DNA from: a virus
Length of the DNA stretch: 64,000 bases
Reading direction: 5' to 3' (one strand)
IMG/VR virus record: IMGVR_UViG_3300010883_000007
Location: 32,001 to 96,000 of that record
Position numbers and translations under genes: made by a program. Below the pieces are notes generated by a model, which saw nothing but the letters and a program-made list of their open reading frames with translations, was not told where the DNA came from and did no database searches. How positions within the stretch are numbered: position 1 is the first letter of the stretch; every line of letters starts with the position of its first letter. Shown here piece after piece: positions 13,792-43,073 of this stretch.

Positions 13792-16700
13792 TAATCGATC
13801 CTCAACCTAAAGAGATAACCATCTGAGTCCCTCTTCACAATGGGTTGGGCCAAGTTGGCCCTCCCTATTATATTAAAACTCTCATCGTGAAGATTTACAC
13901 TTGTAATGTAATTAAATTGGGACGCTGTCTCATTGGCATAGTCTGTGGGCTTAAGCGCTTTAAACGTCGGATTGGAGGAGGAATTGACAGATCCCTTGGG
14001 ACAGGGCACGTTTATCTCCAGAACGTGCACGTTGTGCTCGCCTTCGAAACTGGTCGTCCACTCATCAGCTCCGAAGATGGGGATGTTCGGTGTCTTCACA
14101 ACAACAATACCCTCCTCGTAGATGATATTGCCCACAGCGTTCCACGTGGCGTGCTTCGATAGGGAATCTGCCCGATAGAGGCCTCCGTGTCCGTCATCCC
14201 TGAGGGTCACTGCTAAAACACCCCCAGATCCGGTTACACTAGTGTCAGTTACCTGAAACGATCCGCGCCTAATCTGATTCCCATAAAAGAGGTTCGACAC
14301 ATCAAAGAATGCCACCTGATTTGAGGAGGGATCCTTCGTCCTATTCAGGATCGTCAGGATACCAGAGTTGGCTACCCCCGGATCCTCGGGTGGAGCACCC
14401 TCCAGCGAATTGGAAATGGAAACGTCGGTGTTATCCTTTCCTCCCGTGAATGCGGTCACTGTCCTATACAGGTTTGTGAGGTTGTGAGCTATAGCAGTAT
14501 TCCCTATAGTCCCCACTGCCCGCTGATTGAGGGTTACCACTCCGGCGTAATCATCGGTGTCGGTGGCATCTCTGCTGGCCAGGATTAGTCCTGCGTGTCC
14601 GGTGGATCCGTTGACAGCAGATACAAAATTGTCGTAAACAGTATCAGCATCAGAGCTGTTGGCATTGACTAACACCTTACCCCCCTGGACATCACCGGTG
14701 ACAGACTCGACCTCGTACACGAACCGATAGACCTTCGTCACTCTGTCATATGTGTTTGTCACCGCGTTCTTTCGTAATCCCGTTAGACGTATAGTTGCCT
14801 GATCAGCTGTCTTGGTTGGTGTGTAGATAATCTCTGCAGAGGCAGCCTGAGTTCCTATTCCCTGCCTTCCGCGGTTCTCGCTGGTGATATCGATTAACCC
14901 CTCCGGCAGGGATGCAGTGCTTACCATGTTCGAGAGGTTGATGAGACCGTAGTCAACATTTCCAGCGTCATTGACAAATCGATCGATCAGTGAACCGGAT
15001 ACCGGAACTTCGGCCCGGGTGCCGGACTTGAGAAGACCGAATGATGGACTGAACCTTCCGTTGTCACACGGAAGGACTGTGAGATTTCTCTTTCTCAGGG
15101 AAGCATTTCGGTAGAGCCACAGGTTACACAGCTCAGCCGTGTTGGTGGTCACATCAATTGTCGATCCTGTTAGATTGAAGAGACGGGGATAAAGACCGTT
15201 AACAAACTCTCGGGTGAAGTTTGGAAGGTTCAACATGTGACCGCCGACGCCGAATGACAGGGCAACGTTGAAGGGGTCATCTGTGGTTGATCGAACTGTC
15301 TGGAACGGCGTCTGCATCACCTCCCGCTCCTTGGTCTCCTTCACAAAGAAAGGGGGCACGTAGAAGATCAGGTCAGTCGGAAGGGGATCAGGGCCCGACT
15401 GGGCAGACAGGGCAATCTGTTGCAGAGAGTGGTAGGTATTGAATATCTTGAGATCGTGGATCTCAGCCCTCAACGGGTGCGAGAACCTCACCTTGTGTTC
15501 TGCTATATCATTGTGTGTGGCATCCACATTGGACATGTCGTACGAGTCATTCGTGAACATGCTGGTAACGCCCTCACGGTGGGCAGCATTAGCGTTGAAG
15601 AACTGTGCCACAACTCCCGAGCCATCCAGGGTACCATTGTTGGGACCGTCGTAGAAATTACCCACAAAGACAGCGTCCGGATCACCAATCGGAGGTTCGA
15701 AAGCCTGGGGCATCACTGAAGCTGATGGTATTAAAAATGTCGCATCCTCCTTGCCGTCAATCACGAACGATCCCGTGCCGCTATTGACTGAGGCTCCCCA
15801 CCGAATGGCGACATGATGCCAGTGATTCCTCATGAGCGCGTTGTCCTTCGAGAAGAACACAAGGTCGCTGGGAACTTCCTGGGTGCTACTGCCGAGAGTT
15901 GGAAAGGGCTGGCTCACATTATTAGACGTGACCGCAGTGTTCCTGGGGGATGTCTCAGCGCTGTTGCTTAGCTGCAACATTATCCTGAATCCATCAGTCT
16001 TGCCGTTAATATCCTTCGACGAGCCCGAAATCAGGCTCACTGCGTACGAGGAAGACATGTGAATGATCGTGCCCGGATGATACACTGTTCTTCCAGGCTC
16101 AGTGCCACCGGTAAATGTAGACGGAACGTTAACACTAGTACTTGCGTTCCATGCCGCGGCGTTGTCTAGGGTAATTGCAGTATTACCCGCACTTGTTTTG
16201 ACAGCACCTTGTGTGAGTAAGACTACTCCCGCAGAGGGATTTGTAGCTACTATATCCAGGGATGATTGTGCATTAATCTTTGCAGCAAGATCTGCAGCAG
16301 TTCCCGTACCGCCGCCGCCGGCGGCAGCAATTCCACTTACAGCAATATCTCCGAGTCCCCCAGTGAAAGTTGAGGGGACATTTACACTGCACACGCTGTT
16401 CCAGTGAGCAGCGTCATTTACAGTGATTGTAGTATTACCACTTCTACCAGTAGTTGAACCTTGGGTAATGGTTATTGCAGCAGTAGATGCTGATGCTGTC
16501 ATATCTAGCGCAGACTGAGCATTAATCTTTGCAGCAAGATCTGCAGCGGTTCCTGTGGCGCCGCCACCTGCAGCATAGATTCCGTTGAGTGCAATATTGC
16601 CTGCAGAGACACCGTTGTTCTCGTTATCAACTTCAAACGTAACTGAGGTTCCATCACCATCAATCAAATTGATTGTACTGCCTTCGTTAGGTTTGTCAGT

Positions 16701-17471
16701 TAGCGTAAAGGTGGCTGCTGGTGGTTTAAGACCATTATTCTCGTTGTCTATTTCAAAAGCAACCGAAGTTCCATCGCTGTCTAGCAAGGTGACAGTGGAC
16801 TCTTCAGTAGGCTTATCTGAGAACGTGAATGTTGCGGTAGAAGAGAATTTCGAGTCGTTCGGTTCAGACGAATACTTCGGATTGATATAGAAATCGAACG
16901 TGAACTCCTTGTGGGGTGAGTACATGAAGTTGTCGACCTCATTGGTCTCCCCGGAAGAAGTGGCTGCCGGGTATATCATCACAGATCCCGTGGGAGTTGT
17001 GTCGGACGTGAAGAAGTGCAGGGTGTGGTAGTTGGGATACGCCCACTGCAAGCTTGGGTACGTGCTCCGGTACGTGGGAAAGAGGACCTTCCTCACAACA
17101 TTCTTACGAAGAGTGTTGCTGGTCAACTTGAAGGAGGGCTCGAATCGAATGACTTCCACCTTCTTCTGGCGTGCGGGTGAGGCGGAGGAGGAGTTGACTG
17201 TCTCTAGATACTGACTTAGATTACCAGAAATATCAGATGAGCCTCGGGAATCCCTTACTGTCTGGACCCTCAGTTCCTCAATATCAGCTGTTCCCCAGCT
17301 ATCACCACCGTAGTCCTCGAGGGGTTGTGCCTCCTTCTCAATAGTCGAGGCACGAGAGAAGACTTTAACTGACCCTGTCAGTCCTGAGGAAGATGATGTG
17401 AATGTCCGGCGGGGGTTGGTTGTGAGAGTAAATCGTTCAAGATTCTCTATTGGTATTGGTATAATTGCCAT
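13788..17471 (-). CDS. Large tail/baseplate protein with LamG-like domain, three inserted FTGG modules and C-terminal tail-collar-like segment
   Basis: LamG-like WHHVAIRW...FVIDG...IHDLKIFN; C-terminal ITSVNLHDESFNIIGRANLAQPIVK...FRLRIDY shared with 17510-18790. Confidence 0.7.
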   Translation of the reverse strand: MAIIPIPIENLERFTLTTNPRRTFTSSSSGLTGSVKVFSRASTIEKEAQPLEDYGGDSWGTADIEELRVQTVRDSRGSSDISGNLSQYLETVNSSSASPARQKKVEVIRFEPSFKLTSNTLRKNVVRKVLFPTYRSTYPSLQWAYPNYHTLHFFTSDTTPTGSVMIYPAATSSGETNEVDNFMYSPHKEFTFDFYINPKYSSEPNDSKFSSTATFTFSDKPTEESTVTLLDSDGTSVAFEIDNENNGLKPPAATFTLTDKPNEGSTINLIDGDGTSVTFEVDNENNGVSAGNIALNGIYAAGGGATGTAADLAAKINAQSALDMTASASTAAITITQGSTTGRSGNTTITVNDAAHWNSVCSVNVPSTFTGGLGDIAVSGIAAAGGGGTGTAADLAAKINAQSSLDIVATNPSAGVVLLTQGAVKTSAGNTAITLDNAAAWNASTSVNVPSTFTGGTEPGRTVYHPGTIIHMSSSYAVSLISGSSKDINGKTDGFRIMLQLSNSAETSPRNTAVTSNNVSQPFPTLGSSTQEVPSDLVFFSKDNALMRNHWHHVAIRWGASVNSGTGSFVIDGKEDATFLIPSASVMPQAFEPPIGDPDAVFVGNFYDGPNNGTLDGSGVVAQFFNANAAHREGVTSMFTNDSYDMSNVDATHNDIAEHKVRFSHPLRAEIHDLKIFNTYHSLQQIALSAQSGPDPLPTDLIFYVPPFFVKETKEREVMQTPFQTVRSTTDDPFNVALSFGVGGHMLNLPNFTREFVNGLYPRLFNLTGSTIDVTTNTAELCNLWLYRNASLRKRNLTVLPCDNGRFSPSFGLLKSGTRAEVPVSGSLIDRFVNDAGNVDYGLINLSNMVSTASLPEGLIDITSENRGRQGIGTQAASAEIIYTPTKTADQATIRLTGLRKNAVTNTYDRVTKVYRFVYEVESVTGDVQGGKVLVNANSSDADTVYDNFVSAVNGSTGHAGLILASRDATDTDDYAGVVTLNQRAVGTIGNTAIAHNLTNLYRTVTAFTGGKDNTDVSISNSLEGAPPEDPGVANSGILTILNRTKDPSSNQVAFFDVSNLFYGNQIRRGSFQVTDTSVTGSGGVLAVTLRDDGHGGLYRADSLSKHATWNAVGNIIYEEGIVVVKTPNIPIFGADEWTTSFEGEHNVHVLEINVPCPKGSVNSSSNPTFKALKPTDYANETASQFNYITSVNLHDESFNIIGRANLAQPIVKRDSDGYLFRLRIDY
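16104..16842 (-). repeat. Nested duplicated module (one copy inserted inside another)
   Basis: Protein order is A1-A2-B2-B1; 29-bp exact DNA repeat at 16270-16298 and 16519-16547. Confidence 0.85.
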
Positions 17472-17509
17472 TTAACGCCGTCATCTTGAAACTTCGGTTA
17501 ACCGATTCA

Positions 17510-18790
17510 CTAAAAGTCCAAACGAACCCGGAAGGTGAGATCCCGCTCATCGTTCTTCTCAATAGGTCTAGAGAGTTTTGCAACTGCCAGTAAATTGCCG
17601 AACTCATCATGGAGGCCAATCGTTGTTGGGAAGGAGAACGATCTCTGTGTGTCCTGTCCCTGGTCGATCACTCGAACGCGACCGGATGAATTTGTGTACG
17701 TTGGGTTCGTAGAGAAGTTGAACTCATCTGCGGTCGCCCTGCAGAAGACCAGCGTTGAATTAATCATTGTGATATTCTGGAAGGTCATCGCTGTCAGGGT
17801 TCCCGAGGAGAATCGGGTGGTTGAGAGGTGGTTGATAATATCATCGATTGACGCTGACACAACAAAATCTGGGATGTACTTCGCATTAGGATTACCCGAG
17901 AAGATTGACTTTGTAGCGTCAGCAACATTCTCAAAGCCGTGGCCTATTACCATCGTTCCGGTGGCTAGAAGTCCGTCAGGTGAATACTGATTCATTGCCT
18001 TAATGACTCCGGAGACGTGCTGGGTACCCGATATCACCTTTGCGAGGTCGAGAAGCACTGTTCCATGATCGTAAAAGATCAGGCCGACTCGTCGGGCTGT
18101 GTTGGATGCGGCGACAATGTTCGCGACGTCGCCGCCGAATACTCGTCGAGTGTTGGTTGCAGCTCCAATGTCTGTAAAGATCACTGACCCCGACTCGCTG
18201 GTGATGTTCAGTGTAGGCCGAGGTGGGTGGTTGCCCGTCTCAGTGGCAGTCATCGTTCCTGTCTGATAGAAACGCATCGCAAAGGTCTCTTTCTTGATCT
18301 TGTCCCTTGCAAATAGGCGTTTGAAGGAGACAAACATGGCCTCGTCGATCCGATCACCCACGTCTGTGGACCCAACTGGCGAATAGAAGGCTGAATCTCC
18401 ATTACCCAAGAGTGCCTGAGCGTACTGCTTGTATATATCCACCTTCTCTCTCATCATTACTGAGCTCGATGCGAACAGAAGTTTTCCTGCGGAGTCTTGC
18501 CCTGTGGAAGCATTAGTTACTGTTGTTCCGGATGCATGGAGCCCCACAGTCAGGTCGAAGATTGGGTTGGCAGTTTGTAGCGAGAAGTCCTGATCATTTA
18601 CTGTCTGGAACAGCGAAGAGGTTACTCCTGGGCCCACGCCTCCTGTAACAAAGACTTGGTACGCGCGGCGCGTCTGTGATCCAGATATGTCCTCTTGAAT
18701 AATATCGACAAGCTGATTCAGCGTTGAGCGTCGGACCTTGATGTCCTCAGGTTGTATTCTCTTAAAGCTTCCACCTGTTAATTGTGGCAT
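17510..18790 (-). CDS. Tail/baseplate structural protein
   Basis: C-terminal CRATADEFNFSTNPTY...TTIGLHDEFGNLLAVAKLSRPIEK...FRVRLDF resembles the C-half of the P2 gpH N-terminal (DUF3751-like) domain. Confidence 0.7.
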   Translation of the reverse strand: MPQLTGGSFKRIQPEDIKVRRSTLNQLVDIIQEDISGSQTRRAYQVFVTGGVGPGVTSSLFQTVNDQDFSLQTANPIFDLTVGLHASGTTVTNASTGQDSAGKLLFASSSVMMREKVDIYKQYAQALLGNGDSAFYSPVGSTDVGDRIDEAMFVSFKRLFARDKIKKETFAMRFYQTGTMTATETGNHPPRPTLNITSESGSVIFTDIGAATNTRRVFGGDVANIVAASNTARRVGLIFYDHGTVLLDLAKVISGTQHVSGVIKAMNQYSPDGLLATGTMVIGHGFENVADATKSIFSGNPNAKYIPDFVVSASIDDIINHLSTTRFSSGTLTAMTFQNITMINSTLVFCRATADEFNFSTNPTYTNSSGRVRVIDQGQDTQRSFSFPTTIGLHDEFGNLLAVAKLSRPIEKNDERDLTFRVRLDF

Positions 18791-18808
18791 TGTTTATCTT
18801 ACCTCTAC

Positions 18809-19525
18809 TTACGCTGTGGGTCTTGTAATGGTCACAGTGAAGTCCTTTCGGTACCCCGACTGATTACCCACCACTGCAACAACGCTTGTGATTGTATTCT
18901 TGTCCCCGAGATTTCCGTAAATTGTAAAAATTGTGTCATCGAGGCCTGGTTGAAGAACTAGGTTAAATCTCACCTGGGCTCCGTTCTTATTGTTGACCCC
19001 GGTCTGCTCAACAAGATAGGATGATATCCTCGTTGTGGACTCAATATTAAAGGGTGACCGCCCCTCCACAGCCAGAAATCTATCAGGTGTCATAACAATA
19101 AAGGAGGTGTCTGAAACACCCTCAGGAATTCTGGTCTCGCCTTCAATTGTCTGCTCAAACACCACTTCACGGGAGGAATTATTGCTTGTATTAAATGCTA
19201 CTGTGTTTCCGGTGAGGCCCGCTGTCCCCTGCAGTGACACAGTTGGAAGGTTACGAACCGTTGGGTCAGGAAGGCTCAACATGCGAAACTTCTGCGCAAT
19301 ACCCGACTGTGTCTGGGCTTCGAAGATCGGCGTGTTCTTAATGATCTTCTCCTTACCCACAGTCCTTCCAAACTTTTCGATAATGGTGTAGTCGATCTCA
19401 TCGTCTGACAGAGAGAAGAAAGATATCATAAAGTCGCCCTTGTTAGCCGCCAAAAATTCTCTTCCGATATCTGTCAGGACAGCATCAACAATAATGTTAT
19501 TGGTTGAATGATCAAGGAATCCCAT
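18809..19525 (-). CDS. Tail/baseplate structural protein
   Basis: Start MGFLDH at 19525 with GGGGAG SD. DAVLTDIGREFLA...FSLSDDEIDY resembles the N-half of the DUF3751-like domain; paralog of 28171-29112. Confidence 0.7.
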   Translation of the reverse strand: MGFLDHSTNNIIVDAVLTDIGREFLAANKGDFMISFFSLSDDEIDYTIIEKFGRTVGKEKIIKNTPIFEAQTQSGIAQKFRMLSLPDPTVRNLPTVSLQGTAGLTGNTVAFNTSNNSSREVVFEQTIEGETRIPEGVSDTSFIVMTPDRFLAVEGRSPFNIESTTRISSYLVEQTGVNNKNGAQVRFNLVLQPGLDDTIFTIYGNLGDKNTITSVVAVVGNQSGYRKDFTVTITRPTA

Positions 19526-19526
19526 C

Positions 19527-19601
19527 TTATTTCTCCCCTTGAGACTTTCCTGCACTCCACAGGAGTGAATGTTTAAGTACTCTATAACCTCTTGATATCA
19601 C
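19527..19601 (-). CDS. Candidate 24-aa upstream peptide MISRGYRVLKHSLLWSAGKSQGEK
   Basis: AGGAG SD before a GTG start; its TAA ends 1 nt before the next ATG. Confidence 0.3.
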   Translation of the reverse strand: MISRGYRVLKHSLLWSAGKSQGEK

Positions 19602-19624
19602 GCTATTCTCCTAAACGCTTGCAG

Positions 19625-19632
19625 ATAAGTAT
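19625..19632 (-). promoter_or_regulatory. Candidate late promoter ATACTTAT
   Basis: Lies in a large intergenic gap of the tail block; overlaps a TTTACG-17-TATACT sigma70-like site. Confidence 0.55.
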
Positions 19633-30500: not shown

Positions 30501-33500
30501 CTACTCAAATGTCAGCATAACACTGGTTCCTGAGGCGTCGTCAGGGTTAGTCGATCGATCCCGGGTTAGTCCATCAAAATACGGAAGTGAGGAGGTGCAG
30601 AAAACATCTAAGTTCTGACTGTGTGTGGATTCCGGATCTACGTTAACAGCTCGAGCGCCCTCATCGTCGGGTCGAGAAGTGAATGTTACACTAACAGGAC
30701 CTGACTCTACACCGTCTTCAGTAAAGAAGCGAGTAAATCTACGGGCCTCGAGGAGATCTCTCACTTGACCGAACTTATTGTGGCGATACACAGCAGAAGA
30801 GTACATGGGTCGAATATTGGCCACTCCATACTTGAAACCTCTCAATATAACTTCAGATCCAACACCTATGTGCATACCCCCAGTCACATGGGTCGAAATA
30901 TCGCGGTTAACCGCTGTCTGGACTGTTGTATAGCCCACGGGTTCTTTAGTTTTCTCCCTCTCGCTATACCAATAACGATAGTTGTTGTTAGCGGTGTTCC
31001 ACGTGTAAGAACCCACTGGAGGAGCAATATAAGACTTACCATTGTGGGTGCCACCGTCGCGCTGCGCTAGGTACTGGTCGATGTAGTAGACAAATTTGGA
31101 GTCCGACGAGTGCGGATACCCCCACGTGATCTGGACAGTAGTTACTGTTGATACACCGGATCTCACAAAGGATCCTGAGACAGGAATGGTCGCATTGCGA
31201 TCCACAAGAATCCTCTGCCACTCAGTTCCGTCTCCCAGTAACCCTCCGCCAGTGAAGGATGTTGCTGTAATATTAGTCACAGTCGATGTGATTGTCGTGT
31301 TACTCTGACTACCCCCAACCTTCTGAGTTAGGGACATAGAGCCTTCTCCGTTGGCTGAGGGAGCTGTCCCCACAGCAATTACAGAGTCTGCGGTGTTGGC
31401 ATTGTGCCCGTTGGTGTGATTGATTGCAGTCTTTAGCAGGGTTAAATAATCTCCCTGGTCCATGGCGCCAAGATCTGTTCTTATTGCAATACCTCCCACA
31501 GCAGCATCACCCTCAGATAGGGTGAATCCGTCGCCGAAGTCACCCACTGCAAGAACATCTCCTGTTACTATTGAGTTACCCTTTCCACTTGGTCCGATGC
31601 CAATAAGCACATACTTCTTTGTTACTCCAGCAGACGAGGTGATAGTGACTGTCTGTAGCTCGTTTGCAGACGTAAATGAGTTGAGATCGCCGTCTGCACA
31701 ACCCAGGGATCCGGCTGCCCTGGAGCTATTGGGATGATCAGATGAGATCGTCATTTGAGTGTCTGAGGAGATTGCAGTGACTATTGCAAATGTGCTTGAT
31801 CCCAGCTCGCCGTACTGACTATGCGTAAAGTTAGATGCAGTAATATTCTGTGCATTAGCATCGACGGTAATAGCTGTGTTCATGGATCCTGAGGCGCCGG
31901 CGACCTGCTGATACAGCGCAAGTGTGTCTGTACCGGCGATGGCGTAAATATTAGAGACTCCATGCCCGTTGGCAGAATCTATACACGTCTTGAGCGAGGC
32001 AACTGCTGTCGCAAGACCAGATGCATTATTGAACACAAGAGGAGCGCTATTATCAGACCAGATTGTCGCAGTTAAGTTAGTCACATCGTCGGGGGGTATA
32101 AAACCAGAACCTCCAGTGCCGACGGTCGCTTGGGCTAGTGTCATCGTGTTGCCTGATATCGAACAGGTAATCTTGGGGTTGTGGCCATTCTCGTGGTCAA
32201 TGGCAGTCTTTAGCTGGGTTAAATAATCCCCCTGTGTAGACAGACCACCGCCCGTCAGGTTAATTGCAACAGCAACTCCACCTATGGCCAGATCATCATT
32301 TCCATAGCCTGATACTAACTTGTTACTTCCATAATCAGACCCTGCTGCCAACACATCACCGGTGGCCACCGAGGTTGCCGCGTCATCCACTAATACATAC
32401 CGCTTGGACGTGCCATCAGTTGAGACAAGTGTAATTGCCTGAAGTTCAGACATACCTGATGCTGCAGCTGCATTCGTAACTGTCACATCACATGAAGCCA
32501 CTGTTGTTGAGCCAGTGCCGGCGGGAGAGAGGTTCTCGGCAGTACCTGCCCTATAGTACTTTACTGTTGCCGCTGTATCGATGATGGCTATCGTGTCACC
32601 GGTAATAGGGCCAACTCCTCCAAACTGAATTGCGGCAGAAGATCTGGGTCCGTGTGTGCCAGTGCCCCCTTCTGGAGGGTTCGATCCACTCAACGCGATA
32701 CGATCTCCTACCTTTATCTCTTTGGTAAACTTTGTGTTGATCCCAATAATCGTATCTGATTGATTGGTACTTGTGTGACCCTTAACGTGTATGGGTTCTG
32801 CATTCTTGTGTTGAAAGGTCTTAAATGCGGGCATACCAAAAAAGCCATCGCCAAAACCATAGTATAAGGAGTTGAGCATGGTTATCCCATCTATCTCATT
32901 AAATGTGAGATCACCGCCTCGTGGCCCTATTAGAGCGAGACCTGCGTGAGAGACTGACTCTGTCACAGAGGATGAGAGTTCAGAGTATATGGGTCGACTT
33001 CGGCCGTCGCCTAAGCTGGCCACTGGAGCACCGCGCTGCCCGTCCACATCAGTCATGTCAATATCTTTAGTTCTCAAGAGATAGGACTGTAACCCTAACG
33101 AGCTCAGGAAAGTCTTAGAGCCTGAGATTGCTATGTGACTTATGGCGCCGGCGCGTATCACTTTACCCGTAGAGCCTGTGACCACATTAAAGGTTTTGTT
33201 ACCCTTCCGCTCTGCCGCTAGACGTTTCACCTTCGAGTACTTTGGCTCAAAGGGAAATGAGAATGGAAGATCCCTGTCAAATATTTTATTCGGGCCGTCA
33301 ATTGACGATCGAGGCTCAGATATTACTAAAACGTTAGCTTTGGGATCTAGCATTCCCGCGTTGGGTGTTAAGCTAAGGCCAAAAGATATCTCTGTGCCTG
33401 CGTCATCAAAGAACTTTGAGTCGACAATGGCCTCGACTTTGAGACTCCTACCATCAAATAGGGAGTCATTGTTGATGTCTAATATACCAGCAATTGATGG

Positions 33501-36500
33501 AAGCAGGGTATCATAGTATCGCTCCCGGTGGTCGACCAACTTGAGGCCACGAAGGAAAGAACCGGTAACGCCTGCTGTTCCCTCAGACACCCTTCCAATC
33601 ACCTTTCGGTGCACACCCTTATTCTCAAGGAGATAAGACTCACTTCCGGATGTGGGAAGGGAACCTGTCATCATGTGACCAGCAATCACATTTTCCAGAT
33701 AAGAACCCGAGTAGGCAAAGGATGGCTCTGTGTCATACTGATCATACACGTCTGTGCCCAGAAGAAGCGTCTCGTGTATTGCCTCAGAAGTCAGGGGCTG
33801 ATTACTTGACGGTGTAATCTCCTGATCGCCTCGAAGCACAGATCCATACAACACTAACTTTCCAGCCCCAGGGTGCAACTCGAATGCTGGAGCGGCCAAA
33901 TCTCCGGCGTAATTCAGCGGAGACTGGAATCCAAAGACTAACTTATCTCCCGGCATTAACATGTAGGGGGAGGTCACTCTGTCTGTTTTTGGCGCCTCTA
34001 GTCTGAACGTGTCTTGGTAGGCATCTACACTATACGCACGCTCGAATCCGCTAAACTCTCCGCCTCGAATGGCGCGTCCCGTGGGTATACCCAGACCGTT
34101 ACGAGAGCCATTGATGAACCTGATAAGCAACGAGTCGTTGTCAGTGTCAGGTGTGGTGTCATTGAGTCCGGGGATTTCTATGTAATTCCCGCCCAGATCC
34201 CATGCTGAAGATCCTGGAGCTAATGCGGGAGCCCGAACTGGGGCAGCAAGTGTTAGTCGCTGGTGGGCCCAGGGAGAGGCAGTGTCAACAACAAGATCAC
34301 AAAATGATCGAAGGTCTTCAACATACTTCTCAAACACTGTGGGATCATTCACATTTTTATCGGTGGTGAAGGTTCCTATCGTGGAAAATGTGACCAGGTC
34401 CCTTACAGTTCCCACCTCATCGTACTTGACAGGAATAATCTTTCGAATGGTCTGGGCTGTGTTGTCACCTATTCCTCCTGCGTCGCGGCCATCGGCAAAA
34501 GTGTTGAAGAGTCTGTTACTATAGAAGTCTGTTCCGTGTACAGAGGCAGCTGTTAGCCCGTTAGTCACTTGTCTGTTTCCCGAGGATCCATCTGCCAGCT
34601 GTGTCAACCTGAGAATGCCGCCGGCTCGACTTACAAGAAGCTTCCCATAGTGACCGCTGTCGTTCTCAATACACTTCTGAAGTTGTAGAGCGATCTGGGC
34701 CGAGGTTCCTGTGCATGCAAACTCCATCTTAGAATGTGCAAAATTCGTATTATTAGCTGCATAATACACTTTGGTTGTGTTGTCTGTCGACGTCAGTGTG
34801 ACTGTCTCGCCGACAACAGGAACTTGGGCGTTGGTGTGTGACAGCTGTGAAATATAACTCGAGGTAATAGACACTGCTGTTGTGTGTGCTTCCCCCGGTG
34901 TTAGGATTATTAGCTGGGCCCCGTTCGCCTGGGCCGGCACATCGCTCACCAGAAGCTTTCCGTTGTGACCGTTGGCATGCTCGATGGCAGCCTTGAGCTG
35001 GACCAGGAAGGCATTCTGTGTTGCTGGGGTTCCCGTTAAATCAATAGTCACAGCGGTACCGGATTGACTGGCGGTGGAGCCTCCCCCCACATCTGTTACA
35101 CCACTGGTCACCACATCGCCGGTTGCGACTGCCGATGTGGCATCGTCCACGATAATATAACTTTTGTTAATGCCGGCGGCTGAGATGTAGACACGCTCGT
35201 TTTTGGTCATTCCGCTAACTGCATCACCATCTACTACTGTTAGTGTGCTAGTCCCAAAAGTTATTACAGTTTTAGCCTGAGTCGCTTTGTCAGCGACGAT
35301 AATCTCTGCATCGTTATTGATTCTTGTTACCCGAGCAGGCCTAGAGAGAAGGTTCCCCATTAGCTGTATGCTGTCACCCACCCTAAGCTCACTGGTGAAC
35401 TTTGTTCCCGTTCCGGCAACCACCATTGATCCGGACACAGTCTTCGCAGCAGTTCCGGTTATGGTGTCATAGTCATACCCCTCACCAGAGCCATAGGCAG
35501 AGGAGTGTGGTGAAAGCTGCCACACAGTGGGTATTGTTCCGGAATATGGCATCTCAATAGTTTCTTTTCCGGCGCCGGCTTCAGGGTGTTGGTCCCCCAA
35601 TTTTGTTAAAACTGCTCGATTCTCAATTCCTGGATCTATATTTGCCGGTCTTTGGTTTAGAATGAAAAATGATATCCCCTCGCCGTACTTGGCCGAGGGT
35701 GTAGAGGTTTGTTTGTCCTTGAGTGATGCTGAGAACTCGTACACTATCTTCTCGACCAAAAACGGCCGGTCGATCAAACTAGATACATCAAAGACCTGTG
35801 ATCCAGTGGCCGCGAACTTCGGGTGAAAGGGAAAGCCGAATGTATTAGTTGGCTGAGCGAACCCTGTCTCAATGGGTACCTTCTTGCCCTCAGACTTGAA
35901 CCCCGGGGCGGAGGCATTGGCGGTGGACGAGGCCTCGGCAAGCTGCCAATGACTTTGACCAAACCCAACCATCACAGTGTCTAACAGATTTCTTAATCGT
36001 GCACGATCCTCAGAGAGACCACCTCGTTGAGATTCGGGTATATGAGTATCCGGCTCCGGCCATGGCTTGTGTGAACCTACCCTCTCCCACTTCTTCTCAT
36101 CAAAGTTGAAGTACACCATTGGGCCGGAGTCGGTCTGCCCCCCAGACTGTGCGTTCTTTGCAGTGTATTTTAATGATGTGGATAGAATTTTTGTCGAGGG
36201 CGTCAGGTCGATCTCTAGCCTGTGCTTGTCCCACAGTGGGGCAGATAGACCCGGGCCCACTATCGTTGGGTCAGATCCCGTCGAGTAGAAGGATCCACGA
36301 AGGGAGGGGTCTACAGTAAAGTTCGAATCCCATGTTAGGTCCGGATCATCACCCTTCTTCGACCCAGAAACACGGTCAGAAGACATCACCGGTGTGTGAC
36401 CAAACTGTGCAAAGAGATTAACCTCCCGATACGGCTCTAAATTCTGGGGATTTTCGCTTTTTCTGCGAGGATCATACGAGCTCCTGTGGGATCGTCCCGG

Positions 36501-39500
36501 TCCAAAGAGAGTAGTTGTGGTGTTGGGTGTTGAGAACGGTATACCGGTGTGACCCCGGGGAAGGTTAAATGGAAAGTGGAGACCGTCTGTTGATCCCGTT
36601 AGAATTCCGAAGCTTCCACCACTGAAACCCAACGACTCCTTCCCAGGATCCCTTATAAGGTCCCCTCGGCCTCCCTCGATTCCCACCACACCTGGATCCA
36701 ACTGTCTCCACTTGTGAGACCTTTGACCCACCTCGATCGTTCCGGTGACATTAGTCATAACGATTCGAGTGTTGCCCGAGGTTCCAGGTCGCATCTGAGT
36801 CAGATTGACTGTCTTATTCTGTGTCTCTGCATATATTCCCAGCGTGCCTGTCAGTTCGTTCACCTTCCTGGCAAACTCGGCCGCGGTCTGCTGGGGGGAG
36901 GAATACAGCAGGACGGGCACCTGGCTTGGCTTTCCACCTCTAAATTTGTGCGAGTAGATGGTACCGTAGACGTCTCTGTTTGATCCCAGCGAACCATCTG
37001 GGTGAGTAAAGTTAATCACGGTGTTACCGTAGTCACCAAACACATCCAGTGTTACCTGAGTTAGGCTGACGTTAGCGCGGGCTGCTGAGGCTGCTATCTT
37101 GCCAGCATGACCGGCGGCGGCGTTGATACATGCTATCAAGCTAGTGGCCAGGGCAGTTCTGGTTGCGCCGGCGAAAGTGGACCCTGTAGTTAACAATTGG
37201 GAGGAGGACTTTGTGTACGTCCGGCCAGTCCCATCAGTTGAGAAAATTGTAATCGTCGTGTTATTATCGGGCACACTGCGAAAGAAGATTCGACCAAACG
37301 CGAGGCTCGCACTACGTACTGAGAGCTCGTACTTTGAATTCGCGACGAGGACGAACTCTTTCACCCCTGCCGGAGAGGCATCAAGGCCCTGTGAGCCTGT
37401 TAGGGCCAATCTTCCCCATGCCATTCCTCGTTTGCTCTGGAGGAATTTTATATTGGCTGTCGCGTAGCCAGAGAGAAACTCTGGAGTGTCACTGTCATCA
37501 AATGATGTGGTATACCTTCCTGTGAATCCTCGGGAGGTTACCAAGCGTGATGTTGTGGGATAAGCTCCGAGCTGATTGTCCCTATCTCTAATCTCCACAC
37601 GCGGGGGGAGGCCGATAAAGCCTGACTGCTTCTTATACTGGCGGACACCCTTGAGTCCGGCGTAGTAGAGGGCACGTACGTCCTCAGTACTGAGCTGCTT
37701 GGACCACACAGCAGGCTCGAACATCTCACCGTTGAGAGAATCAGAATTAGACGAGCCATCTCCTCGAAGATGGCCCAGGATGAAGTCTAACCCCTGGTTG
37801 GTGCCTCCCACAAAATTAGCTGCAGTGGCGTTCGTCGCGTTATCGGTTATTGTTTTGTTCCCGGTCGGGCCTGGTACCGCCTGGGTTAGGGTCAGTTTTC
37901 CGGCACCATCGTTGTGGACGTGTATCTTTACACTGCCTCCAGTAAAATTAGCCACAGTTACATTGGTGGCATCGCCTGTAACTACGGTGTTTCCACTGCT
38001 GCCAGCCACTGACTGGGTTAGTGTGATCGCCTGATTGCCGTCGGCCTGGGACGGAACAGATCCCACCGCAATCTTGCCGTTGTGGCCGGCTGCGTGCTCA
38101 ATTGCGGCCTTGAGCTGGACCAGATACGCATTCTGTGTGTGCGCTGGCAGATTGATTGCAACAGCAATTCCGCCGATGGCTGTGTGACCTGCTGCAAGAG
38201 TGCTAGCGCCGTAGTCAGATCCCGCCGCTAGCACAACACCTGTTGCCACCGATGTTGCGTCCGCGTCCACCAGAACGTACTTCCTGAGTGTCCCATCAGC
38301 TGAGGTTATTGTGATCGTCTGCAGCGCCGACATGCCTGATGCTGCGTCCCCGTCTGTGACTGTTACAGTGGTCGAAGCTTTGATCCCGTGACCGTTGGCT
38401 GTTTCGATGCACGCCTTGAGAGAGGTTGCGGCGGCCGCGAGGGTGGCTCCGTAAAACTTGGGTGGATCCGTCGTGAGATCTTGGGCTGTGGCAGTGGTGT
38501 TTGCGTAATATACTTTTGTTGTTCCGTCTGTCGAGATAATTGTGATTGTTCCGGCGTTGGCAGGCACACCCGTAAAAGTTATAGTGCCCTGGGCACCGTG
38601 TGCCGCAGACATTAGAGTGGGAGAGGGCGTTGTGTAGTCAGGTGTTACACCCGTGCCGCCGGCAATTAGGGAATTATACCTGCCCTCCTGGCCTGCAGTC
38701 TTGGTGTATCGATCACCGTTGATGTATATCTTGACTCCGGAGCCTGCGTATGATGTTCCGGTGGCGCTGTAGTTATTGACACCGTTCTTCCAGCAGTCAG
38801 CAAGAAGGTCAGTTCCTGAAGATCCATCGTAGGTGACTGCAACATGCACCCAATCACCTGTTGGGATCTGGGCAGAAACATCATCTGTATAAAATAGAAG
38901 TGCCTGTGTAGATAGCGGTCCACTTCGAAGCTCAAACTTAAGGCCAAGCGAGGAATAATAGAACTTATGACCTGCGGTCTCGCCGGCGGCGATCCCGGCG
39001 ACACCGGCTACCACGGGAGGCGACAGCCCGAATATACCAAAAGTTGTATCTGTTGTCTTCAGCCACACCGCAAAGGAGAAGGGTCCGTCAACCACCTTGT
39101 GAGGATCCTTACCCGTATCGACAAAGTGAAAGTCCTTGTGGGCCGCGGCACTGATGTACGAGTCTGAAGATGTGAACCGGCCGGCAAGGACGGGCGGATC
39201 AGACTCAACGTGGGATCCGGAGTGGGGTGACACCCGAACATCGTGGCCTGGACGTGTGCCCGAGGCAAAGGTTAAGCCGGGGACAGATGTGCTGGTGGGA
39301 TCGCTGTTGCCTCCCGTGAAGGACGTTGCTGTTACACCGGTGAGACCCACAGTGACAGTGGTATTACCACTGTGTCCCAGTGTTACCTGAGTCAGGGTTA
39401 GTACCCCACTTCCGTTGTCGACCACAGTAATCTTACCATTGTGGCCGCCGGAGGCATCTTCTATACATGCCTTAAGCGAGGTGGCAGCGAGTGCTGCAGT

Positions 39501-39914
39501 GGCCCCATGAAATGTACAGGGATCAGCGCCCAGGTCCTGGGCGGCCGCCTTAGGATAAATCTTGGTGGTACCGTCAGTGGAGATGATCGTGATTGTCTGC
39601 GTGTTGGTTGGCACTCCGGCGAAGGTCACAGTAGCAGTGGCCGCAGCTTGGGCCCAGGTGTCGAATCCGTGGTGGGGATCGAGTCCACTGTAGGACGCGT
39701 GGTGTCCATTTCCGGAGAGATCCCTAATACTTCCACTGCTCATGGGAAGGAAGGGATCAGAGTGCTTTGTGAATCTCCAGTGTGCAACCAACGAGTCGGC
39801 TGCTGTGTAGTGCAGCCGGCCCACGTGAGTGCCACCCGTCATCCCCGCAGAGACCTGAAAGTTGGTGTCAAAGCGGGCCCCTGTGATCTTCTTACTTAAC
39901 TTAACTTTAGCCAT
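30501..39914 (-). CDS. Giant (3137 aa) tail/baseplate protein: LamG domain, two G.GTKFT.E..VGD.I barrels, ~10 inserted FTGG modules
   Basis: LamG motifs LVAHWRF, DLSGNGHH, FSFAVWLK, WVHVAVTYDG, KIYING, AVWSKQLS, interrupted by Thr/Ala/Gly-rich repeats. Confidence 0.8.
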   Translation of the reverse strand: MAKVKLSKKITGARFDTNFQVSAGMTGGTHVGRLHYTAADSLVAHWRFTKHSDPFLPMSSGSIRDLSGNGHHASYSGLDPHHGFDTWAQAAATATVTFAGVPTNTQTITIISTDGTTKIYPKAAAQDLGADPCTFHGATAALAATSLKACIEDASGGHNGKITVVDNGSGVLTLTQVTLGHSGNTTVTVGLTGVTATSFTGGNSDPTSTSVPGLTFASGTRPGHDVRVSPHSGSHVESDPPVLAGRFTSSDSYISAAAHKDFHFVDTGKDPHKVVDGPFSFAVWLKTTDTTFGIFGLSPPVVAGVAGIAAGETAGHKFYYSSLGLKFELRSGPLSTQALLFYTDDVSAQIPTGDWVHVAVTYDGSSGTDLLADCWKNGVNNYSATGTSYAGSGVKIYINGDRYTKTAGQEGRYNSLIAGGTGVTPDYTTPSPTLMSAAHGAQGTITFTGVPANAGTITIISTDGTTKVYYANTTATAQDLTTDPPKFYGATLAAAATSLKACIETANGHGIKASTTVTVTDGDAASGMSALQTITITSADGTLRKYVLVDADATSVATGVVLAAGSDYGASTLAAGHTAIGGIAVAINLPAHTQNAYLVQLKAAIEHAAGHNGKIAVGSVPSQADGNQAITLTQSVAGSSGNTVVTGDATNVTVANFTGGSVKIHVHNDGAGKLTLTQAVPGPTGNKTITDNATNATAANFVGGTNQGLDFILGHLRGDGSSNSDSLNGEMFEPAVWSKQLSTEDVRALYYAGLKGVRQYKKQSGFIGLPPRVEIRDRDNQLGAYPTTSRLVTSRGFTGRYTTSFDDSDTPEFLSGYATANIKFLQSKRGMAWGRLALTGSQGLDASPAGVKEFVLVANSKYELSVRSASLAFGRIFFRSVPDNNTTITIFSTDGTGRTYTKSSSQLLTTGSTFAGATRTALATSLIACINAAAGHAGKIAASAARANVSLTQVTLDVFGDYGNTVINFTHPDGSLGSNRDVYGTIYSHKFRGGKPSQVPVLLYSSPQQTAAEFARKVNELTGTLGIYAETQNKTVNLTQMRPGTSGNTRIVMTNVTGTIEVGQRSHKWRQLDPGVVGIEGGRGDLIRDPGKESLGFSGGSFGILTGSTDGLHFPFNLPRGHTGIPFSTPNTTTTLFGPGRSHRSSYDPRRKSENPQNLEPYREVNLFAQFGHTPVMSSDRVSGSKKGDDPDLTWDSNFTVDPSLRGSFYSTGSDPTIVGPGLSAPLWDKHRLEIDLTPSTKILSTSLKYTAKNAQSGGQTDSGPMVYFNFDEKKWERVGSHKPWPEPDTHIPESQRGGLSEDRARLRNLLDTVMVGFGQSHWQLAEASSTANASAPGFKSEGKKVPIETGFAQPTNTFGFPFHPKFAATGSQVFDVSSLIDRPFLVEKIVYEFSASLKDKQTSTPSAKYGEGISFFILNQRPANIDPGIENRAVLTKLGDQHPEAGAGKETIEMPYSGTIPTVWQLSPHSSAYGSGEGYDYDTITGTAAKTVSGSMVVAGTGTKFTSELRVGDSIQLMGNLLSRPARVTRINNDAEIIVADKATQAKTVITFGTSTLTVVDGDAVSGMTKNERVYISAAGINKSYIIVDDATSAVATGDVVTSGVTDVGGGSTASQSGTAVTIDLTGTPATQNAFLVQLKAAIEHANGHNGKLLVSDVPAQANGAQLIILTPGEAHTTAVSITSSYISQLSHTNAQVPVVGETVTLTSTDNTTKVYYAANNTNFAHSKMEFACTGTSAQIALQLQKCIENDSGHYGKLLVSRAGGILRLTQLADGSSGNRQVTNGLTAASVHGTDFYSNRLFNTFADGRDAGGIGDNTAQTIRKIIPVKYDEVGTVRDLVTFSTIGTFTTDKNVNDPTVFEKYVEDLRSFCDLVVDTASPWAHQRLTLAAPVRAPALAPGSSAWDLGGNYIEIPGLNDTTPDTDNDSLLIRFINGSRNGLGIPTGRAIRGGEFSGFERAYSVDAYQDTFRLEAPKTDRVTSPYMLMPGDKLVFGFQSPLNYAGDLAAPAFELHPGAGKLVLYGSVLRGDQEITPSSNQPLTSEAIHETLLLGTDVYDQYDTEPSFAYSGSYLENVIAGHMMTGSLPTSGSESYLLENKGVHRKVIGRVSEGTAGVTGSFLRGLKLVDHRERYYDTLLPSIAGILDINNDSLFDGRSLKVEAIVDSKFFDDAGTEISFGLSLTPNAGMLDPKANVLVISEPRSSIDGPNKIFDRDLPFSFPFEPKYSKVKRLAAERKGNKTFNVVTGSTGKVIRAGAISHIAISGSKTFLSSLGLQSYLLRTKDIDMTDVDGQRGAPVASLGDGRSRPIYSELSSSVTESVSHAGLALIGPRGGDLTFNEIDGITMLNSLYYGFGDGFFGMPAFKTFQHKNAEPIHVKGHTSTNQSDTIIGINTKFTKEIKVGDRIALSGSNPPEGGTGTHGPRSSAAIQFGGVGPITGDTIAIIDTAATVKYYRAGTAENLSPAGTGSTTVASCDVTVTNAAAASGMSELQAITLVSTDGTSKRYVLVDDAATSVATGDVLAAGSDYGSNKLVSGYGNDDLAIGGVAVAINLTGGGLSTQGDYLTQLKTAIDHENGHNPKITCSISGNTMTLAQATVGTGGSGFIPPDDVTNLTATIWSDNSAPLVFNNASGLATAVASLKTCIDSANGHGVSNIYAIAGTDTLALYQQVAGASGSMNTAITVDANAQNITASNFTHSQYGELGSSTFAIVTAISSDTQMTISSDHPNSSRAAGSLGCADGDLNSFTSANELQTVTITSSAGVTKKYVLIGIGPSGKGNSIVTGDVLAVGDFGDGFTLSEGDAAVGGIAIRTDLGAMDQGDYLTLLKTAINHTNGHNANTADSVIAVGTAPSANGEGSMSLTQKVGGSQSNTTITSTVTNITATSFTGGGLLGDGTEWQRILVDRNATIPVSGSFVRSGVSTVTTVQITWGYPHSSDSKFVYYIDQYLAQRDGGTHNGKSYIAPPVGSYTWNTANNNYRYWYSEREKTKEPVGYTTVQTAVNRDISTHVTGGMHIGVGSEVILRGFKYGVANIRPMYSSAVYRHNKFGQVRDLLEARRFTRFFTEDGVESGPVSVTFTSRPDDEGARAVNVDPESTHSQNLDVFCTSSLPYFDGLTRDRSTNPDDASGTSVMLTFE

Positions 39915-40310
39915 ATTCTACTTCTTGAGACCCCCGAATGCTATGGAGTCTGTGCCCTTATCCATACCAATATACACAAAACCTGCTCCGGCGGAAACAT
40001 GGTTTCTCTTGAGACGGTCTTGAGCTGAGCCCGTCATGGCTGCCAGAGCAGTCGTCATTATGCCGTCTGCCAGACCTCCGGACTCACCTCCTGTGAAGGA
40101 TGTTGCGACAGCATTTGTTAGGTTATCAGTCACAGTGGTGTTTCCTTCAGGACCGCCGTCTGCCTGTGTTAGGGTTAACAGAGAGGTTCCGGATGGGTTA
40201 ACCACAGTTATCTTTCCGTTGTGCCCAAGGGCTGTTTCGATGCACGCCTTGAGGGATACAGCAGCGGCGATCGGAGTGGCTCCGTAAAACTTGGGTGGAT
40301 CCGTCGTGAG
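38397..40310 (+). repeat. Dispersed collinear DNA repeat between two different tail genes
   Basis: 24-bp (38397-38420 = 40230-40253) and 35-bp (38443-38477 = 40276-40310) exact matches at a constant 1833-nt offset. Confidence 0.9.
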
Positions 40311-43073
40311 GTCCTCTGTCGCAGCACTGGTATTTGCGTAATACGCTTTTGATGTTCCACTCCTTGAGATGATTGTGACAGTTCCACCATTGGCCGGAAT
40401 CCGCATATCAACACTAAAATTGGCCACGGTTGAGGTTATAACAGTAGTCCAGCTGTCTCCGCTGGCCTGGGTTAACGAAAGGACCTGAGCTCCATTCGCC
40501 TGGGTTGGGACTGCTCCAACTGTTAGCCTACTACCGTGTCCCTTGGGATGTTCAATGGCCGCCTTGAGCTGAACCAGGAACTCATTCTGTGTGTCCAGGG
40601 AAGATCCGGTCGCCTTAATTGCGACAGCGATATCCCCATCATCCGCTGTTGTTGCAGAGCCCGTGTCTGACCCATCCTCCAACACAGCTCCCGTAGTAAC
40701 GGTTGAGAGCTCCTCATCGACGATCCTGTAGACTCTCGTCCTGGGGGTCGTCGTACCCTTTATCGAGACAATTGTCACCTTCTGCCCCTCAGCCATGCCC
40801 GAGGCCGCATCGCCGTCGGCGACCGACACGTTCGCTAGTGCGTCATCACCCAAGACGGCAGACGGAAACTGGACTGTCGCTGTGGCCTTGATGTCTGTCC
40901 GCGTCTGCTCGTCCGTGATGCCCGCTATTCTTATGTACGCGTCCGATCCCTCTTTAAAGGGCTCGAGCTGATTAGTCCTGGGCGCAAACAGGCCCTGCAT
41001 TGTGACTGGACCTGTTGATGTTGCGCCGGGGGGGAGTCTTGCTTCGAAGGTCTCGTCATCCTCCTGGGAATTAAAGGCCTGAAAGGTCGGCTCTAGAAGA
41101 TCAAGCCCAAAGGTCTCAACTCCGTCGAAGTACATATCCATACCCGTCTCATTGGGATCGTACTGCTGATCCATAAGGGTCGACTGCCTGAATATATCCT
41201 CTGTACACATATCAGCACGGATGCCGCGCGCGGTGTAGGGCAGCTCAATTGAGGATCGATCTGCGAGGCCTCTGATTGGAAATACCTCCATCACACCATC
41301 CATTAGGCTACGAGCTGATGCATCAACCATCATCTCCGGAACGACCAAGCTGAGTGGTGGTGTTCGAACAATATCAGCAGCGTTGGTAGTCATTAGGTCG
41401 TTGTACTCACTGCCGTCTTGGTAAACGTACAGCGCCTGCCCGAGGTCACGCTGGTCCCTGGCGTGATTGATTGCCACACCCAGGCCGGAACTTCTGGTGG
41501 ATGTGTCAAGCTGTGGGAGGGATTTCACACCCCATGCAGGCTCGCGAATGGGAGAGTTGACCTCTAGAGATATATCAGTTAATGCCCATAGATCGTTCGA
41601 CCCAGAAGCATGGTTAACTTGTACCCACTTTACACTCCATGGGCCGGGGCCATACGGACTTAGTGACTCTGTAACTGATAAAACTGTTCCTGCTGCTAGC
41701 CCGTAGTCGCCTCCGCCGATAAAAGATACTACTGAACCACTCGCTAGGGTCTCAATTATTGTGGTGTTACCTGCGGGCCCGGTTGATGCCTGTGTAAGTG
41801 TTAACACACCTGAACTGTTATCAGCCATAGTCACCTTTCCATTGTGCCCAGTGGCTGCTGCAATACAGGCTGCGAGAGAAGTGGCGGATGCGGCGGCGGT
41901 ACCGATGGTGGGGACTGGGGGGATTGCTAACAAGTCCTGTGCTGCACCAAACGTATACACTCTAGAAGTTTCATCTGTTGAAACAATTGTTACCGCTTCG
42001 CCCGTTATAGTTGATCCGGTAAATGTCACAATTGCTGTCGCAGATGTATCTGCAGTCGCATGAGTCCTTACTGTATTCCAGGATCCGCCCTGACCAGAGA
42101 GGTCACCCCTTATCTGAAAGTGTAAATCCTGATCAGCACCGGGAACTCCGCCAGCAGAGGTCATTCCGGAAATAGCGCCCTCGGGCCCTGAAGACGTGTC
42201 GCCTCGAATCACACGATACTTTACAGTTACTTTATCCTGTAAGCTATTTGCCCTCACACCCCCCAAGCTTCCCGTGACACTCAAAAATCTATCGCCTGTG
42301 TCTGATCCCCCTACAAACCCTGAAGATGTCACATTAGTGAGTGAATTCACAATTGTCGTATTTCCAGAAGTTCCAACAGCAGCTTGGGTTAGCTCAATCT
42401 CAACAGACTCATAATTTACTGTAATGCTGCCATTGTGACCGTTAGCGTGAGCTATACAATCTGATAAAGATTCTGCTGCACCTTCTTCATCGGTGTTTAA
42501 GAACTTTGGTGGATCTGATGTAAGATCTTCGGAGGCGGCGGCGACATATGCTTTTACCAGGCCTGCGTGGTCAGTTATCTCTATTGTCTCTCCAACTACG
42601 GTTGCGCCATCGAAAACAATAATTGCTGTGGCTGCCTTGAGAGGCTGTCCTCTCATAACCCACCACTTGTTGCCTGTTGTAGTAGCTGTGAGTACTGCCG
42701 GTGCGGTACCGGGATGCGTGCTTCCATTCGCCTCAAAAATATCAACGTTTAGGGTACCAATTGCAGCATCAAACGATCCCGCGGATGTACCGGATGCCGA
42801 TCGGCTTGAGGACACAGCCATATTGCTCGGCGCGTCTAGATCATTATAGAATCTATACGTCTCCATTCGCTGGCCATCGACAATCTTAACAGGGTCATTG
42901 ATAGGCTGGGGCTTAAGCCCTATAAATCCGTACAGGTGATCCATTGTTCGGCAGTTGATTCCCTGCCGATACTGGTCTATTGCTGTGGTTCCGGACAGGG
43001 AGGGCGGGTATACCAGGATTGCTTGGCTTCCCTTGGAGTGGGAACCTGACAGGACTCTCTGTGTTGACGCCAT
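39918..43073 (-). CDS. Tail/baseplate protein with reelin-like beta-sandwich and four inserted FTGG modules
   Basis: WSVKWVQVNHASGSNDLWALTDISL resembles a reelin sub-repeat end; GGAGGT SD. Confidence 0.7.
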   Translation of the reverse strand: MASTQRVLSGSHSKGSQAILVYPPSLSGTTAIDQYRQGINCRTMDHLYGFIGLKPQPINDPVKIVDGQRMETYRFYNDLDAPSNMAVSSSRSASGTSAGSFDAAIGTLNVDIFEANGSTHPGTAPAVLTATTTGNKWWVMRGQPLKAATAIIVFDGATVVGETIEITDHAGLVKAYVAAASEDLTSDPPKFLNTDEEGAAESLSDCIAHANGHNGSITVNYESVEIELTQAAVGTSGNTTIVNSLTNVTSSGFVGGSDTGDRFLSVTGSLGGVRANSLQDKVTVKYRVIRGDTSSGPEGAISGMTSAGGVPGADQDLHFQIRGDLSGQGGSWNTVRTHATADTSATAIVTFTGSTITGEAVTIVSTDETSRVYTFGAAQDLLAIPPVPTIGTAAASATSLAACIAAATGHNGKVTMADNSSGVLTLTQASTGPAGNTTIIETLASGSVVSFIGGGDYGLAAGTVLSVTESLSPYGPGPWSVKWVQVNHASGSNDLWALTDISLEVNSPIREPAWGVKSLPQLDTSTRSSGLGVAINHARDQRDLGQALYVYQDGSEYNDLMTTNAADIVRTPPLSLVVPEMMVDASARSLMDGVMEVFPIRGLADRSSIELPYTARGIRADMCTEDIFRQSTLMDQQYDPNETGMDMYFDGVETFGLDLLEPTFQAFNSQEDDETFEARLPPGATSTGPVTMQGLFAPRTNQLEPFKEGSDAYIRIAGITDEQTRTDIKATATVQFPSAVLGDDALANVSVADGDAASGMAEGQKVTIVSIKGTTTPRTRVYRIVDEELSTVTTGAVLEDGSDTGSATTADDGDIAVAIKATGSSLDTQNEFLVQLKAAIEHPKGHGSRLTVGAVPTQANGAQVLSLTQASGDSWTTVITSTVANFSVDMRIPANGGTVTIISRSGTSKAYYANTSAATEDLTTDPPKFYGATPIAAAVSLKACIETALGHNGKITVVNPSGTSLLTLTQADGGPEGNTTVTDNLTNAVATSFTGGESGGLADGIMTTALAAMTGSAQDRLKRNHVSAGAGFVYIGMDKGTDSIAFGGLKK

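Follow-up and report, generated by a model that had tools for sequence, protein, structure and literature searches.

Three virion genes carry 17 copies of a module that interrupts itself

The DNA analysed here, referred to as the window, is a 64,000-nucleotide stretch (bases 32001-96000) of the 104,452-bp IMG/VR record IMGVR_UViG_3300010883_000007, a fragment of an uncultured marine jumbo phage with a CheckV completeness of 28%. Every gene of the window lies on the minus strand. Three of them, P0001, P0002 and P0003, have a protein repeat in common (self-BLASTP E values down to 1e-38), hereafter called the module, which occurs 17 times and interrupts both other domains and its own copies. An 18th copy (D_III) was found upstream of the window in one of two sheath paralogs, giving a total of 18 copies in four virion proteins. 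At the whole-protein level, the three carriers showed no Pfam or PHROG match. The carriers and their module parts are listed below with lengths in amino acids (aa), G+C content at third codon positions (GC3) where relevant, and window coordinates except in the last line; G001 is a syntenic relative genome and P0004 an ortholog of P0003.

13788..17471, minus strand: carrier gene P0001, 1227 aa; 3 copies in a virion protein that contains LamG
16731..16841, minus strand: A_III1 outer copy, N-part, residues 211-247 (strands E5-34 of the AlphaFold2 (AF2) model)
16356..16730, minus strand: A_III2, complete inner copy nested in A_III1, residues 248-372, GC3 0.33
16104..16355, minus strand: A_III1 outer copy, C-part, residues 373-456 (AF2 model)
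14439..14846, minus strand: A_IV, diverged single copy, residues 876-1011
30501..39914, minus strand: carrier gene P0002, 3137 aa, 10 copies; two loops of the N-terminal LamG are interrupted
39306..39644, minus strand: B_I1, short-type, in a LamG loop
38382..38594, minus strand: B_I2 outer copy, N-part, ending after the GH motif
37935..38381, minus strand: B_II1, long-type inner copy in B_I2; absent in G001
37800..37934, minus strand: B_I2 outer copy, C-part
37299..37370, minus strand: B_x diverged outer copy, N-part, putative from the ortholog alignment, approximate borders, residues ~849-872
36933..37298, minus strand: B_I3, nested in the B_x hairpin; absent in G001
36723..36932, minus strand: B_x diverged outer copy, C-part
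35247..35276, minus strand: B_I4 outer copy, first strand only
34830..35246, minus strand: B_II2, long-type inner copy after strand 1 of B_I4; G001 counterpart elsewhere, in the host barrel
34527..34829, minus strand: B_I4 outer copy, remainder
32502..32639, minus strand: B_I5 outer copy, N-part
32049..32501, minus strand: B_II3, long-type inner copy in B_I5; absent in G001
31818..32048, minus strand: B_I5 outer copy, C-part
31242..31706, minus strand: B_II4, long-type single copy in the second barrel
39918..43073, minus strand: carrier gene P0003, 1051 aa, 4 copies
42303..42635, minus strand: C_I1, short-type; absent in P0004 and G001; GC3 0.31
41712..42044, minus strand: C_I2, short-type; absent in P0004 and G001; GC3 0.39
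40833..40886, minus strand: C_I3 outer copy, first strand and linker
40404..40832, minus strand: C_II1, long-type inner copy in C_I3
40083..40403, minus strand: C_I3 outer copy, remainder
upstream of the window, L009:5026-8466 (1146 aa) and L009:8515-11682 (1055 aa): neighbouring tail-sheath paralogs, with a module in the first but not in the second

The copies were mapped using a hidden Markov model (HMM) seeded with four clean copies, together with reading of the sequence. This map assigned three copies to P0001, ten to P0002 and four to P0003, the same counts as those given in an initial annotation of this DNA. The seed HMM matched full copies as well as fragments with complementary HMM ranges. 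For example, residues 441-513 of P0002 matched HMM positions 4-73, residues 514-661 formed a full copy, and residues 663-706 matched positions 72-115; a further series comprised positions 2-82, a full copy and positions 81-124. Complementary flanks of one domain around a complete insert indicate insertion of a domain into a domain. Six nested pairs were identified (outer copy with the inner copy in braces: A_III1{A_III2}, B_I2{B_II1}, B_x{B_I3}, B_I4{B_II2}, B_I5{B_II3} and C_I3{C_II1}), and four loops were used for nesting, namely beta1-beta2, the beta2-beta3 hairpin, beta3-to-helix, and helix-to-beta5 after the GHNG motif. All insertions were in frame, and when the inner copy was cut out in silico, the rejoined outer copy aligned over its full length with uninterrupted copies. 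None of the 17 copies was a simple tandem neighbour of another. The initial description of the copies as non-tandem, in-frame and interrupting hosts and one another at different internal positions was therefore accurate.

Module length ranged from 110 to 155 residues, and three subtypes were distinguished: a short one (~111-125 aa), a long one (~140-155 aa) whose strand-3-to-helix loop is extended by an additional segment, and a third one in P0001 that lacks the GHNG motif. The tenth copy of P0002 (B_x), previously taken to be short, proved to exist; its shortness did not hold up, as the ortholog alignment showed a full but diverged module with B_I3 in its hairpin.

The proposed LamG host was recovered in P0002, where residues 204-440, located between two modules, matched PF13385 above the cutoff (29.5 vs. 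27.6 bits). The match spans only profile positions 14-108 of 151, indicating that the rest of the LamG domain lies beyond the modules. Residues 457-875 of P0001 scored 21.7 bits against the same profile, under the cutoff, and the GTKFT barrel host was recognised by eye and in the ortholog alignment only. In addition, a neighbouring 1205-aa protein (window 43074-46691) has a LamG domain (PF13385, residues 179-335) and no module copy, indicating that not every LamG protein of this phage has been colonised.

Predicted fold of the module and of a nested pair

The nested pair at residues 208-458 of P0001 was modelled by AF2 using an alignment (A3) composed of natural nested relatives and single-copy proteins, which yielded a mean predicted local distance difference test score (pLDDT) of 84.7 and a predicted template modelling score of 0.71; single-sequence modelling of P0002 residues 441-705 reached a pLDDT of only 35. 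In the model of the P0001 pair, the outer N-part comprises three strands and the outer C-part a short strand, a helix, three strands and a short helix, and the inner copy displays all of these elements in identical order. This correspondence suggested that the outer halves form one domain of the same fold. Thus, the confident model supports reassembly of the interrupted halves into one domain, as the initial annotation had supposed, and in this model both termini of the inner copy have to come together in a single loop. Each of the six insertion points was located between secondary-structure elements.

Structural alignments skipped the inner copy, in agreement with the AF2 model of the outer domain, and revealed three-dimensional similarity over most of a domain to solved sheath-external and FliD D2-D3-like outer domains, so that the resemblance to sheath domains noted at the outset extends to the fold. 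Foldseek against the PDB gave no match at E ≤ 1e-3, and a profile search (A1) of PDB chains found no family member, only a de novo design at E 0.04. No sequence-level homology to a described family was detected in Pfam, PHROG or the PDB.

It is established that sheath proteins acquire extra domains on their outer face, in greater number when the phage genome is larger (PMC9230969); D3 of PhiTE is one such domain (PMC11972413). The external domains of PhiTE (D3, 9cb9) and of the cyanophage A-1(L) sheath (8kee) have the same fold as the module. The module shows no sequence link to these domains and is covered by no Pfam sheath family. Unlike them, it also occurs in LamG, baseplate, fibre-tip and nozzle proteins, and nests in itself. 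The fold is also shared with FliD D2/D3 and the outer domains of flagellin; domain insertion has been described as 'not unusual' in FliD, flagellin and hook proteins (PMC7316729).

Copies are absent or relocated in close relatives

To compare orthologous sites, we used the 95.7-kb IMG/VR genome G001. Six of the 18 copies (C_I1, C_I2, B_II1, B_I3, B_II3 and D_III) were absent from it, and the corresponding carrier domain or outer copy was uninterrupted. The G001 counterpart of B_II2 had another location, lying in the host barrel and not within B_I4, and the remaining copies were present. Moreover, P0004, which is 79% identical to P0003, exactly lacked C_I1 and C_I2, with continuous host sequence on both sides. 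Filled and empty sites therefore coexist among orthologs.

An alternative explanation is an ancient, fixed architecture shaped by differential loss only, without gains. The ortholog of P0001 in G001, which is 93% identical and of equal length, keeps all three copies, as this explanation would predict. The module layout was likewise filled throughout in contigs of four independent marine studies that are ≥99% identical to the window; no real contig skipped a module, although rare variants can drop out of contigs, and the layout is therefore no guide to turnover within populations. (One contig 'joint' among the four marine runs, supported by 21 nt on one side and with loose ends at both, was rejected as spurious.) For B_II1, B_I3 and B_II3, the difference may be either a gain or a loss. 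These observations are outweighed by the different site of the B_II2 counterpart and by the codon composition and sheath data below, and with six of 18 copies missing in G001 and one at another site, loss from a fixed ancient architecture is unlikely.

Codon composition pointed to recent arrival of some copies. The genes of the genome have a mean GC3 of 0.523, and only 1% of 110-codon windows fall below 0.338. D_III, with a GC3 of 0.229, was below all 1322 background windows; values for C_I1, A_III2, A_III1 and C_I2 were 0.306, 0.328, 0.355 and 0.387, respectively. The drop did not extend beyond the module borders, and GC content at codon positions 1 and 2 was unchanged. The most recent candidates, D_III, C_I1 and C_I2, are all among the copies missing from the closest relatives, and a foreign composition limited to the module argues against loss as their explanation. 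As a control, all module copies in G001 had a GC3 of 0.53-0.64, similar to that of their genes. Modules of related AT-rich phages had a GC3 of 0.20-0.36, which makes these phages plausible donors. In other phages, the module-minus-host difference ran in both directions, with modules lower in four of seven.

Among sheath homologs from 50 IMG/VR loci, most were module-free. In a quick maximum-likelihood tree of host-only sequence, rooted at the midpoint, module presence required at least three changes (gain or loss), and none of 500 label shuffles gave so low a number. The insertions fell into two loops ~45 residues apart; the first loop contained short, long and third-type modules, and the second was occupied in the window phage only. 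The sheath copy of the window phage stands solitary beside two module-free sisters, and both this distribution and the presence of different subtypes at two sites argue against loss alone.

In G001, the ortholog of P0002 is split into ORFs (open reading frames) of 844 and 1882 aa by a single in-frame TAA (L010:14685-14687). The register is kept across it (ILTG * ADGIHFPF vs. ILTG S TDGLHFPF in P0002), and the TAA may stem from a nonsense mutation or a sequencing error, or may be read through.

Insertion junctions and possible exchange between copies

The three recent insertions were inspected for traces of a transposition mechanism. Neither terminal inverted repeats nor flanking direct repeats were found at them, and comparison of filled and empty junctions showed no target-site duplication; short linkers accompany the inserts. 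No transposase or homing endonuclease was present among the ~40 neighbouring ORFs scanned, a subset of the ORFs of a genome that is 28% complete. A PD-(D/E)XK nuclease gene is found 15 kb away, within the glycan-synthesis cluster.

These results bear on whether the module is a self-mobilising, in-frame selfish element or is spread by a homing nuclease. Rickettsia palindromic elements are in-frame, translated selfish DNA in unrelated protein genes, and are short, palindromic and not folded domains. Like them, module DNA inserts in frame in unrelated genes and is translated, and the precise, domain-sized insertions, the use of unrelated genes and of its own copies as targets, and the foreign composition would all suit such an element. 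However, the module has no palindromic ends and encodes a conserved folded domain with invariant structural residues, in contrast to selfish DNA that is merely tolerated. Together with junctions free of repeats and target-site duplications and the lack of a transposase or homing-endonuclease family among the genes scanned, this makes self-mobilisation very unlikely.

The shared modules have diverged more than their carriers in the G001 comparison (52-64% vs. 83% identity in P0003; 34-56% vs. 62% in P0002), and many copies matched some unrelated foreign protein as well as, or better than, any paralog of the same genome. Exact in-frame tracts were found between B_I2 and C_I3 (35 nt; 38382-38594 vs. 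40083-40403, in two genes) and between A_III1 and A_III2 (29 nt). Furthermore, B_I2 and C_I3 use identical codons at 32 of 47 identical residues, clustered in one tract. The exact tracts and clustered codons suggest patchy gene conversion between copies, as far as the sequences indicate.

Faster divergence of modules than of carriers and short exact DNA tracts would also be expected under programmed diversification, by cassette switching or by targeting of the diversity-generating retroelement type within a population. In that case a near-identical template/variable repeat pair should be present, but the best DNA identity between copies was ~78% over 174 nt. Contigs of the four marine studies kept an unchanged module layout, and no reverse transcriptase or invertase turned up in the genes scanned, a survey that did not systematically cover all ORFs. 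Programmed diversification is thus extremely improbable. The dedicated 'diversification system' envisaged in the initial annotation also found no support in terminal repeats, target-site duplications or a linked enzyme among the genes scanned.

A family of at least 850 protein clusters

A family profile built from 11 uninterrupted copies was run against 1.84 billion representative proteins. With E-value cutoffs of 1e-3, 1e-10 and 1e-30, it matched 850, 378 and 37 clusters, respectively, with carriers of 127 to 4159 aa, showing that the repeat first noticed in the window belongs to a large metagenomic family. The nearest ESM Atlas clusters were unannotated and 94-100% viral. Pfam domains in 37 carriers included LamG, C1q, TNF, BclA_C, podovirus nozzle, myovirus sheath, MAM and CopC, and a BFVD fold search added baseplate J-like, major tail, sheath and nozzle proteins as well as two uncharacterised proteins of Rhodobacter phage RcTitan. 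Near-identical DNA is contained in seawater and marine metagenomes of many studies. Among GenBank phages, megablast and tblastn found no relative of the carriers or the module even at E 0.01, and a search of cellular genomes with a single module, by a method that detects close relatives only, found none either.

HMM matches were parsed as brackets in 155 proteins, comprising the 149 best library matches, P0001-P0003 and P0004-P0006. A full copy inside at least one interrupted copy was found in 32 of them (depth one in 22, two in eight and three in two). Among 27 complementary N/C pairs, the break was located at HMM positions 40-59 in 21, and a minor cluster lay at 80-94. In P0005, a short-type copy is inserted in a long-type copy, the reverse of the pairs in the window. 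The third-type nested pair of P0001 recurs at 64% identity in a different carrier, the 502-aa metagenome protein P0079, pointing to transfer of nested pairs as a whole.

Tandem arrays are also present elsewhere in the family. In the metagenome proteins P0095 and P0065, C-terminal half-modules (helix and three strands) occur in tandem, up to four in a row, and the half-module may therefore be a unit of its own.

The most conserved positions in 196 foreign full-length copies were Y33, G78-H79, Q98, G102 and G105-N106. GNTT and TN.T were considered as conserved N-glycosylation sequons and rejected: N-x-S/T was present at HMM position 106 in only 47% and at position 115 in 27% of these copies.

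Proposed mode of spread

We consider it probable that the module is an autonomous insertion domain, swapped by ordinary recombination and kept by selection, which serves as a plug-in building block for phage surfaces. It would fold on its own as an alpha/beta surface domain (three strands, short strand, helix, three strands, short helix) with the conserved motifs GH.G, LTQ and G..GN and with N- and C-termini predicted to be close together. Because of the close termini, a whole copy could fit into a surface loop of another domain, including another copy, without disturbance. Virion genes would gain, lose and relocate copies in the form of in-frame DNA segments the size of one domain, and the likely route is recombination between co-infecting phages, whether illegitimate, guided by microhomology or homologous between copies. 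The module presumably has no machinery of its own, and selection would retain only in-frame events in tolerant loops. The outcome would be stacked and branched decorations on exposed parts of the sheath, baseplate, fibre and nozzle, most likely for adhesion or virion stability, our default guess. The branched appendages on the baseplate proposed in the initial annotation were conjectural, and modules are likewise carried by sheath, nozzle, major tail and fibre-tip proteins.

For this fold class, self-nesting has been described in D4/D5 of the Geovibrio thiophilus flagellin (PMC11532411), so the behaviour itself is not without precedent. That case concerns one nesting event in one bacterial protein, whereas the module occurs in at least 850 phage clusters and its nesting reaches three levels, uses several loops, runs in both subtype directions and differs between close relatives. 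In the literature, we found no description of the phage sequence family, of family-wide recursion, or of gain, absence or relocation between close relatives. Self-nesting of the fold class thus appears to be known once, in flagellin, and the phage family and its turnover appear to be undescribed.

Immunoglobulin (Ig)-like domains offer another comparison. They usually stand at termini or in tandem and are not known to be recursively nested in loops, and they have an all-beta Ig fold, whereas the module is alpha/beta. Like the module, Ig-like phage domains are accessory, surface-located and horizontally exchanged, and weak carbohydrate binding has been proposed for them (Fraser et al. 2006, cited in PMC9230969).

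Domain insertion is usually inferred from single structures. The empty and filled sites, foreign codons limited to the module, several tolerant loops and recursion to three levels indicate that in this family the process is still under way, so that the evolution of complex phage surface proteins becomes testable. A domain so far without annotation is also delimited by this family, and it occurs in hundreds of clusters of marine phage proteins. Moreover, a compact module with adjacent termini and mapped permissive loops could be used as a display scaffold in phage engineering.

Genomic neighbourhood

A glycan-synthesis cluster adjoins the virion genes at the right end of the window (54831-63302). 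It encodes two GT4 proteins, a GT2 protein, NeuB, a CMP-sugar cytidylyltransferase, an NAD epimerase/dehydratase, a UDP-sugar dehydrogenase and a 2-hydroxyacid dehydrogenase. The PD-(D/E)XK nuclease gene is located in the middle of this cluster (57340-58227).

Flagellin outer domains of the module's fold are classic targets of nonulosonate glycosylation. Given this and the adjacent nonulosonate/glycosyltransferase cluster, the module could be a display scaffold for glycans made by the phage's own cluster. It may also act as a 'domain cassette' competent for recombination, with conserved ends that guide copying into new loops, and would then be no mere passive passenger. We find both ideas rather doubtful, and any link of the glycan genes to module function is speculation. 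If the cassette idea were true, marine jumbo phages would be able to build and reshuffle branched surface arrays quickly.

The genome also encodes a T4-type major capsid protein, a large terminase, the two adjacent tail-sheath paralogs, a gp6-like baseplate wedge protein, a primase and an SbcCD fusion. SbcD and SbcC are usually two separate proteins. At window positions 9079-12222, a single 1047-aa ORF combines an SbcD-like phosphoesterase (residues 3-360) with an SbcC-like ATPase (residues 270-1044).
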